Assembly (NCBI GenBank): GCA_964386035.1
Contig: CAYLQT010000010.1
Span: forward strand, 14,963 to 78,962
Source: an uncultured Clostridium sp.
GTDB taxonomy: Bacteria > Bacillota > Clostridia > Oscillospirales > Acutalibacteraceae
Direction of reading: 5' to 3'
Length of the DNA: 64,000 bases
This document shows positions 60,920 to 63,504 of this stretch, in pieces. Within the stretch, counting starts at the first letter, position 1. Every line of letters begins with the position of its first letter. Under the pieces are notes generated by a model. That model saw nothing but the letters and a program-made list of their open reading frames with translations, was not told the DNA's origin and made no database searches. A program made the translations under genes and the position numbers.

Positions 60920-61011
60920 CGATAGGAGCATTTGCAGCAAAAGCAGGTCGCTCCAAACAGCGAAAGATAATACTTCCCAACTGCCAATAAGCTAGGCTTT
61001 TTAAGAAGGAA

Positions 61012-61046
61012 TAAATACGCACCCACCGTTTTTTTGCGGCAGGTGC
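61012..61046 (-). terminator. terminator after hypothetical membrane protein
   Basis: GCACCTGCCG-loop-CGGTGGGTGC then GTATTTATT. Confidence 0.55.
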
Positions 61047-61053
61047 ATTTGAT

Positions 61054-61533
61054 TCACTTTGATATTTTGTTCAATACTCCTCCGACAGCGGCAGTCGCAT
61101 CCTTAACAAAATTTACCTTGGTGTCGAAGATAAGCCCGTTACCGTCGGATATTTCTATATGTGCGATGACGAAATCGTTGCCGTCCGTCTGCACGGTGTT
61201 TCCGTCAGCTGTCAACCATGTTATCTTAATATTGTTTAGTGCAATGTCGTTATCAATCGGCACTTCAAACTGTGCACCGTCAAAGAATGTCGCCTGCGAT
61301 TTGGCGTTGACAATCAGTCTGCCTCTTTGCTCATATATCTCAATCGAATTATATCCTTCTTTTTCTTTCACGATAAGCTCGTCCGAGCCGACCTGAATTT
61401 TGAAAATCTCGCCCGATTTTTCTTTTTGAACTCTGATAACGACCGTTGAAACGACGAGTAACACGACCACAAAGAGTGAAGAAACAATAAGAATTATCTT
61501 GTCCTTTTTAGTGTGCTGAATGCTATCCTCCAT
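61054..61533 (-). CDS. hypothetical single-pass membrane protein
   Basis: One N-terminal TM (IILIVSSLFVVVLLVVSTVVI) then beta-rich domain; own promoter- and terminator-like signals. Confidence 0.7.
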   Translation of the reverse strand: MEDSIQHTKKDKIILIVSSLFVVVLLVVSTVVIRVQKEKSGEIFKIQVGSDELIVKEKEGYNSIEIYEQRGRLIVNAKSQATFFDGAQFEVPIDNDIALNNIKITWLTADGNTVQTDGNDFVIAHIEISDGNGLIFDTKVNFVKDATAAVGGVLNKISK

Positions 61534-61573
61534 CCGTCTATCCTCTCTCATCACACAATATGATTTAGAGTTG

Positions 61574-61601
61574 ATTATATCACGAACACAGATATTTTCA
61601 A
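61574..61601 (-). promoter_or_regulatory. sigmaA promoter for the membrane protein gene
   Basis: TTGAAA-N16-TATAAT with TG extension. Confidence 0.5.
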
Positions 61602-61746
61602 GGGGTTTGAGGAAATATTAAAGGGCAATATCCGCCGCAAACAGAGGTGACCCATTTTCAGTAAAAAAACCAAGGTGTTGTATATCAAAACGCAGAACGG
61701 CGAAAGTGTTGCGCTGAACAAGGTACGGTTTAACAGACAGAAGCAT

Positions 61747-61776
61747 AAAAAAGCACCTGAATTTAATCAAGTGCTT
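61747..61776 (-). terminator. terminator overlapping HD-protein stop codon
   Basis: AAGCACTTGA-TTAAAT-TCAGGTGCTT-TTTT on minus strand. Confidence 0.75.
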
Positions 61777-62176
61777 CAAGACAGTGTTTATATTTTTCAA
61801 CTCTGGCCAAGTCTTTTTCTGTTACAACCTTGAGCCGAGTCAAATCCGAATTATGCCATAAGTCTTGAATCTTCACGACTTTGGCAAGCTCATTTGCTTT
61901 TACCCGTTCAATATATTCTTCATAGCTTTCATCCTTTCTATGAGTGATGGCATCGAGAGCCTCCACAATATTCGGACTAAATCCCAATGCCGAAAACCAG
62001 TCAAATGAATAACTATCGTTATCTTCAACAACATCATGCAAGAGTGCAACTATCTTTTGTTCTTCTGTCTCACAACAACTCGCCACATAAAACGGATGTA
62101 AATAATACGGTTTTCCGCCCTTGTCCACTTGCCCTTTGTGAGCTTCCATACAAATCTTTTCAGCTATCTTAAGCAT
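61763..62176 (-). CDS. HD-domain small alarmone hydrolase (Mesh1/SAH; Aph1-like)
   Basis: AH.GQ.DKGG.PY..HP..V, ALLHDVVED, VKIQDLWHN; standalone RelA/SpoT-type hydrolase domain, 137 aa. Confidence 0.88.
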   Translation of the reverse strand: MLKIAEKICMEAHKGQVDKGGKPYYLHPFYVASCCETEEQKIVALLHDVVEDNDSYSFDWFSALGFSPNIVEALDAITHRKDESYEEYIERVKANELAKVVKIQDLWHNSDLTRLKVVTEKDLARVEKYKHCLEALD

Positions 62177-62378
62177 ATCGTTTAATCACTTCTTTCGCTT
62201 CTTCCTCTGTAATTGTGTCAACATTAATATCACCTGTATAAATTTGTAGCATTTCGCTATCCTCGACCCAACGGTGAGAACCAAAGCTGTACCGCTCAAA
62301 ACGCGCACCATCTCTATGCCGAATCAGCACAGGTGGTCTTCCCGGCAGAGCGAAATCTTCCAAATAATATTTTGTCAT
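62169..62378 (-). CDS. 69-aa protein coupled to the HD hydrolase (possible toxin-immunity protein)
   Basis: MTKYYLED...RWVED...ITEEEAKEVI; its stop overlaps the hydrolase start by 8 nt. Confidence 0.7.
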   Translation of the reverse strand: MTKYYLEDFALPGRPPVLIRHRDGARFERYSFGSHRWVEDSEMLQIYTGDINVDTITEEEAKEVIKRYA

Positions 62379-62449
62379 TATCCAACCCCATTTTATAATA
62401 TACGCTAACGAAAATATGCAAATAAAACATTTTCGACAATTCAATTTAA

Positions 62450-62647
62450 TCAACCATTTAAAAATTCAGATGCCCGATGTGCATCTATCACAGCATCCTC
62501 ATCGCCTATCGCCTCCAGTCGTTCTGCGAAGCTACACTTGATTTCTTCATACATCTCTACAGGTACTTCCGCAGTCAAAAGCTTATTTTCTATGAGCTTC
62601 AAGCGATATTTACCATCTTCAATAATATTCCAAATGATTTTTACCAC
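62450..62647 (-). CDS. hypothetical 65-aa protein
   Basis: GTG start overlapping upstream stop by 7 nt; weak RBS; no recognised motif. Confidence 0.4.
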   Translation of the reverse strand: MVKIIWNIIEDGKYRLKLIENKLLTAEVPVEMYEEIKCSFAERLEAIGDEDAVIDAHRASEFLNG

Positions 62648-63222
62648 GTTTTATCTTCATACGGTGTATCTTTGACACCGTTATCATTAAGATGACGCAC
62701 CATATTATCCAACACGCCGTGCCACATTCTTTTAAACCATTCGGTCTCACCGAACCACTTCACTACCGTGGGACTTATCGCATAATATGTATGAATGAAC
62801 GCTCTACCGAGCATTGTCTCCGCCAGAGTATTGTCCCTGAAACGGCGCAGTGTCCACACCTGAGGGCAATCATAGGAGCCGTACACACAGGTTGCCACAT
62901 AACAACCCTGACTGTCGCTGTGATTGTACGATCCGAACATCCCCGGATTGCTGGAGCCGGTCTTATTACCGTTTGAATCTCGGTGTGTATAACCGCCGAA
63001 CAGTCCCGGGTCTGAATGTCCTGTTTTGCGACCTTGATTGTCATAATGATTATATCCGCCGAACAATCCCGGGTCGGAGCGACCGGTCTTATTGCCGTTG
63101 GCATCGTAATTGGTGTAACCTCCGAAAAGACCGGGTTCGCTACGCCCCACCTTCTTGCCATGCTCATCATAGTGATTGACGGTGCCGAATAAACCCTGTT
63201 CGCTTCTGCCTTTGTTTGCCAT
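62641..63222 (-). CDS. repeat protein with C-terminal CFI-box-CTERM domain
   Basis: Five 21-aa repeats then GCYVATCVYGSYDCPQVWTLRRFRD..L....GRAFI..YY..SP; RBS GGAGG. Confidence 0.85.
   Translation of the reverse strand: MANKGRSEQGLFGTVNHYDEHGKKVGRSEPGLFGGYTNYDANGNKTGRSDPGLFGGYNHYDNQGRKTGHSDPGLFGGYTHRDSNGNKTGSSNPGMFGSYNHSDSQGCYVATCVYGSYDCPQVWTLRRFRDNTLAETMLGRAFIHTYYAISPTVVKWFGETEWFKRMWHGVLDNMVRHLNDNGVKDTPYEDKTW
62905..63210 (-). repeat. in-frame 63-bp (21-aa) tandem repeat, ~4.9 copies
   Basis: GRSEQGLFGTVNHYDEHGKKV / GRSEPGLFGGYTNYDANGNKT / GRSDPGLFGGYNHYDNQGRKT / GHSDPGLFGGYTHRDSNGNKT / GSSNPGMFGSYNHSDSQG. Confidence 0.92.
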
Positions 63223-63475
63223 TGCCTTTTCCTCCGCTTTAGTTAGTTTTCTTTTGCTTCTGATACCATTTTACACGAAGCTATGTACAATAAAACGGAC
63301 TTTGTTAAATTAGGTTCCAGGTGCTTTGCCGTTTTCATCACGGTCACCAAGGTAAGCAGTTAATACTATCAACTAAATAATAACACAGTTTTTTCTTTCC
63401 GTCATTAGTTTTTCACCGATCGAAAAACAGCTATTGCCAATCCGCCACAGCCACCATACTTTCTTGTTAATCCGA

Positions 63476-63504
63476 TTGACTTCCGACCTGTTTCATGCTA
63501 TTCT
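63476..63504 (+). promoter_or_regulatory. sigmaA promoter for GH38 gene
   Basis: TTGACT-N17-TATTCT with TG extension. Confidence 0.55.

Follow-up and report, generated by a model that had tools for sequence, protein, structure and literature searches.

The window analyzed here (64,000 nucleotides from an uncultured Clostridium sp. of the Acutalibacteraceae, contig CAYLQT010000010.1, positions 14,963 to 78,962) carries a short gene at 62641-63222 whose product joins a few copies of a repeat to a CFI-box-CTERM domain. Two questions arise from this locus: what a protein built in this way may do, and whether it acts alone or together with the genes that follow it. The original prediction described about five copies of a 21-residue unit and a CFI-box-CTERM domain without a signal peptide, and this description was borne out by a period-21 test, by the NCBIfam model NF041770, and by hydropathy: the 193-residue protein has no signal peptide and no membrane helix (top 19-residue Kyte-Doolittle mean, 0.75). 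The gene encodes a real, strongly conserved protein of gut Clostridia. It is a cytoplasmic two-module protein, with a head fixed at five hairpins and no obligatory neighbor. With its repeat head on a CFI-box tail, it represents a separate and sizeable subfamily (about 600 clusters) of a catalogued family.

The repeats are evident at the protein level. The unit consensus is G-x-S-[DE]-P-G-[LF]-F-G-G-Y-x-[HN]-Y-D-x-x-G-x-K-x, 21 residues in all. At period 21, self-identity reached 53 of 85 positions, compared with 7.3 ± 2.5 (maximum, 18) in 10,000 shuffles, and at all other periods from 15 to 29 it was at most 9. Between units, pairwise identity is 48 to 76% in protein and 48 to 68% in DNA, and Tandem Repeats Finder detected no DNA-level array in the repeat region; the repeats are therefore old and kept at the protein level rather than prone to slippage. 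The full-length AlphaFold2 model, built on a 70-sequence alignment, contains ten beta-strands and four helices (mean predicted local distance difference test [pLDDT], 78.9; predicted template modeling score [pTM], 0.48). Five hairpins are modeled, two strands per unit, so that the predicted monomer supports the proposal of a beta-hairpin repeat module. Given the low pTM and the disordered linker, head and tail have no fixed mutual orientation.

The resemblance to RHS/YD repeats, also proposed at the outset, held in part. The period, the Y-x-[HN]-Y-D-x-x-G motif in units 1 to 3, and the family as a whole speak for it: RHS_repeat (PF05593) was the only Pfam family recurring among the 70 aligned members (14 of 70 at E ≤ 0.1; best, 2.4e-5). 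The protein itself, however, scored only 16 bits with this model (E = 0.016), under the gathering score of 22, and gave no TIGR01643 match at E ≤ 0.1. Judged by its period, its Y-x-x-Y-D-x-x-G turn, and its predicted hairpins, the head appears to be a distant relative of RHS/YD repeats; it is like a short YD-type ribbon, yet the protein is not an RHS family member. None of the models in Pfam, NCBIfam, PHROGs, or PADLOC matches the head above threshold. Searching the PDB with the full model, Foldseek returned no match below an E value of 0.005. Its weaker neighbors (E > 0.005; TM < 0.25) were OspA, the choline-binding repeats of LytA, the glucan-binding repeats of alternansucrase, and RhsA, which we discounted as generic hairpin-repeat or propeller proteins. 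A PDB sequence search with the family profile gave a sole match at chance level (E = 0.097).

The tail begins at an invariant Gly106-Cys107 junction and reads G106-C107-Y-V-A-T, in agreement with the C-[FY]-[IV]-A-T box of the family; C107, Y108, A110, and T111 are invariant in 70 sequences, and this clade has a second conserved cysteine, C119. A genome search with NF041770 recovered the domain at the same coordinates as the protein match, with 80.5 bits. The domain lies at the C terminus and ends 18 residues ahead of the stop; within the extension that follows, G182, Y188, and D190 are nearly invariant (G80, Y86, and D88, invariant, in the tail alignment A2). AlphaFold places helices at residues 108 to 114, 120 to 131, 137 to 157, and 161 to 180, the last of which is mostly covered by the domain match and is amphipathic and Trp/Lys rich (hydrophobic moment, 0.55). 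Modeled alone from its own alignment, the tail is compact and helical, with a pLDDT of 92.7 and a pTM of 0.82. With this model, Foldseek found no PDB match at E ≤ 10 and nothing meaningful among the viral models of BFVD, and the tail would be an orphan fold on present evidence.

The tail is also found far beyond this protein. A phmmer search of 1.84 billion representatives gave 14,581 matches at E ≤ 1e-3 and 1,368 at E ≤ 1e-30, in keeping with the earlier description of CFI-box-CTERM as a widespread C-terminal domain. From about rank 20 of this list, only residues 100 to 193 match, with 65 to 81% identity, in proteins of 104 to 1,061 residues. In translated loci, the tail is preceded by heads that include TFIIB-like zinc ribbons combined with helical or TPR-like regions, ankyrin repeats, leucine-rich repeats (LRR) of the BspA type, and L7/L12-CTD-like segments. 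More distant, plasmid-borne tails are joined to cold-shock, TPR, CAP, and calcium-binding proteins, and these plasmid-borne relatives are already named CFI-box proteins by NCBI. The tail is thus the constant module, found at 70 to 80% identity in more than 1,000 protein clusters, and the heads it is joined to are binding modules unrelated to one another. Among the plasmid-borne relatives, the Acinetobacter lwoffii plasmid pZS-8 (5,246 bp) encodes a 283-residue TPR-CFI-box protein at 1333-2184, and a Burkholderia plasmid encodes a cold-shock domain fused to the CFI-box tail (L088:3653-4234). Proteins annotated as cold-shock plus CFI-box recur on several Burkholderia plasmids.

The repeat head, for its part, is nearly constant in size. 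Of about 180 head-type proteins sampled, 159 have five units by the unit hidden Markov model (HMM); this model undercounts diverged units, and the proteins affected have five when counted by eye. Relatives of 191 to 200 residues retain five units even where identity has fallen to about 45%. Most of the sampled proteins are close to the length of the one studied here (74 with 193 residues, 27 with 194, 21 with 192, and 13 with 195), and very few depart from the usual repeat number (L044 and P0147, with three units, and P0088, with six). The suggestion of a length-variable array is therefore not upheld. A search with the head only (residues 1 to 106) gave 594 clusters, the best 120 of which all have the same overall size. 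The CFI tail is present in 178 of 180 head-type proteins; one of the others is frameshifted, and one, P0296 (L103:5001-5669, seen on two contigs), has a different tail. In P0296, the five-repeat head is followed by an unrelated acidic, Tyr-rich segment ending in a C-terminal membrane anchor (19-residue Kyte-Doolittle mean, 2.77). With this topology, the head lies on the cytoplasmic side and is held at the membrane by the anchor. The P0296 gene is monocistronic amid housekeeping genes and adjoins tilS and dnaB. We sought a family of such head-plus-anchor variants and rejected it; the P0296 tail has no relatives in 5.8 billion proteins and is a singleton.

Conservation extends over both modules. 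The 193-residue protein has matches in more than 5,200 clusters (90% identity), most of the close ones with 191 to 200 residues, and its own 90% cluster has 569 members. The ratio of nonsynonymous to synonymous rates (dN/dS) in 18 gap-free orthologues is about 0.11 in the repeats and about 0.07 in the tail, although synonymous sites are saturated even between proteins 85 to 88% identical; both modules are under strong purifying selection. Relatives are encoded in 431 stretches of species-representative genomes, from gut and rumen Clostridia: Faecousia, Oscillospiraceae, Acutalibacteraceae, Ruminococcaceae, and a few others. Within the genus, NF041770 matches in 13 of 61 genomes, with one or two copies each. 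In the genome studied here, the repeat-CFI gene is a single copy (Table 1). The segment from 60920 to 63500, from a type IIA topoisomerase pair to a GH38 gene, has a G+C content of about 0.38 to 0.40, compared with about 0.47 to 0.51 in its flanks, and the repeat region of the gene, inside this segment, has a G+C content of 0.53.

Table 1. Features of the repeat-CFI locus, in window coordinates
Feature	Position	Strand	Basis
Complete coding sequence, 193 residues plus stop: five-repeat head, linker, CFI-box tail	62641..63222	-	Open reading frame (ORF) list, ATG start
Shine-Dalgarno sequence GGAGGA, 7 nt 5' of ATG	63230..63235	-	Read from sequence
Promoter-like site upstream of the CFI gene, ATGACG / 17-nt spacer / TG-extended TATTAT	63377..63405	-	Consensus match only
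Repeat unit 1, residues 5-25, GRSEQGLFGTVNHYDEHGKKV	63148..63210	-	Period-21 analysis; AlphaFold strands 6-9, 15-18
Repeat unit 2, residues 26-46, GRSEPGLFGGYTNYDANGNKT	63085..63147	-	Period-21 analysis; AlphaFold strands 24-30, 36-40
Repeat unit 3, residues 47-67, GRSDPGLFGGYNHYDNQGRKT	63022..63084	-	Period-21 analysis; AlphaFold strands 45-51, 57-61
Repeat unit 4, residues 68-88, GHSDPGLFGGYTHRDSNGNKT	62959..63021	-	Period-21 analysis; AlphaFold strands 66-72, 78-82
Shortened repeat unit 5, residues 89-106, GSSNPGMFGSYNHSDSQG	62905..62958	-	Period-21 analysis
Flexible linker to tail, residues 95-104 (within unit 5)	62911-62940	-	AlphaFold pLDDT <50
CFI-box-CTERM domain, residues 107-175	62698..62904	-	NF041770, 78.1 bits (cutoff 40), model positions 1-69 of 69
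Clade-conserved C-terminal extension, residues 176-193, end of helix 161-180 then ...NDNGVKDTPYEDKTW	62644..62697	-	Beyond the NCBIfam model
3' remnant of a CpXC-family gene ("65-aa ORF," orf65)	62450..62650	-	Alignment to CpXC-family C terminus; abuts CFI stop codon
94-aa ORF, probable start Met26 (62378)	62169-62453	-	

What might a protein of this kind do? Because nearly the same 90 residues end more than 1,000 clusters with unrelated binding heads, we read it as an adaptor, soluble in the cytoplasm, in which the binding head can be exchanged while the tail, for docking or assembly, stays the same. This is the reading we favor, tentatively, with chances that fall somewhat short of even; seen from the sequence, it is plausible that the protein acts as an adaptor, that its tail docks, and that its head is the binding part. 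A ribbon of five predicted beta-hairpins leads, through a flexible linker of about 10 residues ending in Gly-Cys, into a compact helical domain of the cytoplasmic "CYVAT" clade of CFI-box tails. In the adaptor scheme, the head would present a repeated aromatic/His/Asp surface (a conserved Phe, Tyr, His, and Asp per hairpin) and bind a ligand or a protein, and the tail would dock or self-assemble at a conserved cellular site. Our best guess is that the tail would sit at the membrane's inner face or on a conserved partner located at it. A membrane-proximal site is favored by the amphipathic helix 161 to 180, by the exchange of the tail for an anchor in P0296, and by zinc-ribbon sister proteins encoded in SPFH operons. 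In these operons (L048:1542-5285 and 16 other loci), an SPFH gene (Band_7_1 plus zinc ribbon, YdjI-like) is followed by a gene for a 234-residue membrane protein and then by the zinc-ribbon/helical CFI-box gene, sometimes with an extra small zinc-ribbon membrane protein before the latter. The repeat-CFI gene itself is a stand-alone unit without fixed neighbors.

Several observations weigh against this reading. The link of the tail to the membrane is indirect: the P0296 tail is the singleton described above, and an SPFH neighbor is present in 17 tail-only loci and in none of the repeat-type loci. This genome has two Band_7_1 genes, at C1:223421-224089 and C17:25483-26151, on contigs other than that of the CFI gene, and a phylogenetic profile against SPFH (PF13421) was uninformative, SPFH being present in 54 of the 61 genomes of the genus. 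A catalytic or metal site would be just as good an explanation for the tail's invariant Cys, Arg, Arg, Asp, Tyr, and Ser. Since the tail fold has no relative in the PDB or BFVD, no activity can be transferred to it, and our literature search found no paper on the CFI-box-CTERM domain. Lastly, a gene for a 271-residue protein often lies directly downstream in the closest relatives, although, as discussed below, it is at most a facultative partner.

The main rival to the adaptor is a single-gene defense device, perhaps acting by abortive infection, in which the head senses a component of an invader and the tail is the effector, either membrane perturbing or an enzyme dependent on its Cys, Arg, and Asp residues. 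Part of the case for it lies in the architecture itself, as the pattern of exchangeable heads joined to one constant tail recalls immune proteins of the sensor-effector type, and the tail has invariant polar residues. Another part lies in distribution and context. The gene is accessory, patchily distributed (13 of 61 congeners), and mobile between contexts. Members of its own 90% cluster adjoin McrBC, LexA-like, UmuC-like, and TnpV genes, or lie in a stretch resembling an integrative and conjugative element, with sortase, CHAP, and RNase_T genes; another relative sits between Dnd-associated and GmrSD genes, and serine recombinases or integrases occur near several loci. On pZS-8, the TPR-CFI-box gene is the only nonbackbone gene, the others being rep, mobC, a relaxase gene, and copG. 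Most neighborhoods, however, consist of ordinary housekeeping genes. The 150 neighbors encoded within 3.5 kb of 26 repeat-type loci represent 173 Pfam families, of which none was seen more than three times. The protein has no match in PADLOC or PHROGs, a single distant match to the tail was found among 50,697 phage records, and the tail is soluble, small, and without a recognizable fold. On balance, we consider a defense role unlikely, if less so than the explanations that follow.

A different possibility is that the gene belongs to a cassette of two or three genes and that the copy in the window is an orphan left by a deletion, which may have lost its function. The one recurrent neighbor of repeat-CFI genes is the 271-residue protein (271 to 274 residues; for example, L099:5015-5830, L095:5684-6499, and L008:5659-6483). 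Its gene comes immediately after the CFI gene in 9 of about 41 species loci, and several metagenome contigs show the same arrangement. The protein has no Pfam match; by eye, it has a CxCx5CxH (SWIM-like) motif, CSCFCSYNCKH, and a weakly KOW/HAS-barrel-like N-terminal region. In L007, L008, L009, L014, L016, L021, L022, and L095 to L102, its gene shares the strand of the CFI gene and follows it at a distance of 10 to 180 nt; a CpXC gene comes next in L099 to L101 and L014. The window, too, has the 3' end of a CpXC gene directly after the CFI stop codon. The ORF in question, orf65, aligns to residues 147 to 210 of 212-residue CpXC-family proteins (38% identity; E = 1e-10), an assignment made through L107 and L108, which are 80% and 51% identical to the Pfam-annotated CpXC protein of L099. 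Its relatives in 300 family-level genomes occur only inside ORFs of 234 to 262 residues, and it has no match in phage records. Since close relatives have the order CFI gene, 271-residue gene, CpXC gene, the window looks like such a cassette after deletion of the 271-residue gene and most of CpXC. The end of the deletion would be the CFI stop codon itself, and we take the 7-nt overlap of orf65 with the CFI gene to be a scar rather than translational coupling.

Even so, this genome lacks the 271-residue gene, as do 13 of 17 others in which the repeat-CFI gene is intact. This absence led us to reject an obligatory partnership; at the most, the 271-residue protein is a facultative partner in some lineages. 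The window copy is intact and has a strong ribosome-binding site, remains intact in diverged strains, and belongs to a family under purifying selection. We therefore regard loss of a cassette partner as a doubtful account of how the gene works, one that falls a little behind a role in defense.

The other genes downstream are likewise not partners. A tblastn search for the 65-residue, 94-residue, HD (137-residue), and membrane (166-residue) proteins within 5 kb on either side of 80 related loci found them nowhere except in the window itself, so the expectation that homologues of the repeat-CFI gene would be linked to these genes failed. In a DNA search of 60 congeneric genomes, the CFI gene was matched in nine and its flanks in none. 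Strains about 96% identical, on contigs from three metagenome runs, keep 61000-61883 and 62617-63500 and have 91 other bases in place of the 733 bp at 61884-62616. The replaced segment contains the complete 94-aa ORF, almost the entire orf65, and 70% of the HD gene, counted from its 5' end; within the CFI gene itself, these strains have no indels. Taken together with the orf65 remnant, these results separate the CFI gene from the downstream cluster, whose genes are unrelated debris and cargo, namely, a CpXC remnant and a strain-variable, immunity-like pair. The pair, the 94-aa ORF and an HD protein that is a small hydrolase of the RelA/SpoT type (PHROG 990; E = 3e-45), is probably a unit separate from the CFI gene. 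In the 96% identical strains, this pair is broken or absent, and the last 40 or so HD codons are kept. The first 25 codons of the 94-aa ORF look noncoding, being hydrophobic and Cys rich. A search of RNA runs turned up none that contains this stretch.

An exported or wall-associated role, in which the hairpins would bind a cell wall polymer after nonclassical export, is improbable. YD-type repeats are typical of surface proteins, and LytA, the alternansucrase repeats, OspA, and RhsA appear among the Foldseek neighbors, but all of these matches are weak (E > 0.005; TM < 0.25). Furthermore, the protein has no signal peptide, sister heads on the same tail are of cytoplasmic types (zinc ribbon, cold-shock, and L7/L12-like), and the tail-anchored P0296 puts the head inside the cell. 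Finally, the conflict module of the original prediction, a toxin-immunity-like operon of the repeat-CFI, 65-residue, 94-residue, and HD genes, is already contradicted and has hardly any chance of being right: the four ORFs do have overlapping start and stop codons, no strong terminator precedes 61777-61750, and the HD protein is of a type that serves as immunity to alarmone-synthetase toxins (PMC10083569 and PMC12226406), but the partners do not co-occur in the 80 loci or 60 congeners, related strains that keep the CFI gene lack the 733 bp, orf65 is a CpXC-family remnant, and the 94-aa ORF most likely starts at Met26, behind a promoter-like site of its own (62422-62395) within its 5' extension. 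Of the earlier notion of an adaptor or receptor in such a module, then, the adaptor role is plausible, and the conflict part finds no linked partner in 80 loci to support it.

The protein matters beyond this locus in that the CFI-box tail is among the more widespread catalogued C-terminal domains without a known function. The 193-residue variant, which is the smallest soluble protein to carry the CFI-box, is cytoplasmic, with a simple head of fixed size and a confident model, and is therefore convenient for asking what the tail binds; with the invariant residues of the tail well defined, it is also suited to asking whether the Gly-Cys junction is modified. A bolder version of the adaptor can be imagined, in which an unrecognized modular system of gut Firmicutes would use the "CYVAT" CFI-box as its universal handle for docking or assembly. 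Interchangeable recognition heads (YD-like ribbon, zinc ribbon/TPR, ankyrin, and LRR), each joined to one nearly invariant domain of 90 residues with an orphan fold, would be brought to a conserved site close to the membrane, such as SPFH scaffolds, to watch for stress or invaders, with the 193-residue protein as the system's minimal stand-alone sensor or decoy. We hold this to be a long shot, about on a par with the cassette; if it were true, the protein would be the most tractable model for the CFI-box, including any chemistry at the Gly-Cys junction. The analysis also removes a false lead, as what looked like an operon with toxin-immunity-like genes is a deletion scar next to a strain-variable cassette, and the locus is a reminder that overlaps of start and stop codons can come from decay.

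Comparison with known systems helps to place the protein. It departs from a polymorphic toxin-immunity module in having no co-occurring downstream gene (80 loci and 60 congeners), in the strain indel that separates it from the genes below, and in the lack of a PADLOC match. With the C-terminal domain of LytA and the repeats of glucansucrases, it shares short, aromatic-rich hairpins of about 20 residues in an open ribbon or superhelix, as reflected in the weak Foldseek matches; those proteins, however, are exported and bind wall polymers, whereas ours has no export signal and no sequence match to their families. The likeness to the RHS/YD repeats (PF05593 and TIGR01643) of Rhs, WapA, and teneurins lies in a period of about 20 to 21 residues, the Y-x-x-Y-D-x-x-G turn, and one predicted hairpin per unit. 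Long Rhs arrays form a closed shell, for which five units are far too few. The head differs further in an added conserved PGLFGG loop and a subthreshold HMM score, and the protein lacks an Rhs core, cleavage motif, toxin tip, and export signal and ends instead in the conserved CFI-box. Closer are the zinc-ribbon/TPR-CFI-box proteins of the SPFH (YdjI-like) operons of Clostridia, which are also cytoplasmic and whose C-terminal 90 residues are 75 to 80% identical to those of our protein; they differ in their TFIIB-like zinc-ribbon head and helical repeats and in the Band_7_1 and membrane-protein genes upstream (17 loci), which no repeat-type locus has. Closest of all is the CFI-box-CTERM family itself. 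The whole 69-position NF041770 model is matched, with 78 bits against a cutoff of 40, at the C terminus and with the invariant Cys after a Gly-rich junction, and the clade of our protein is set apart by C119, the amphipathic last helix, the 18-residue extension, and the lack of a signal peptide or membrane helix. Having neither an exported passenger nor a membrane-anchoring tail is a difference of clade and not an exclusion, given that the model requires neither; the tail is a genuine CFI-box-CTERM domain, of a family that has been catalogued but not studied.

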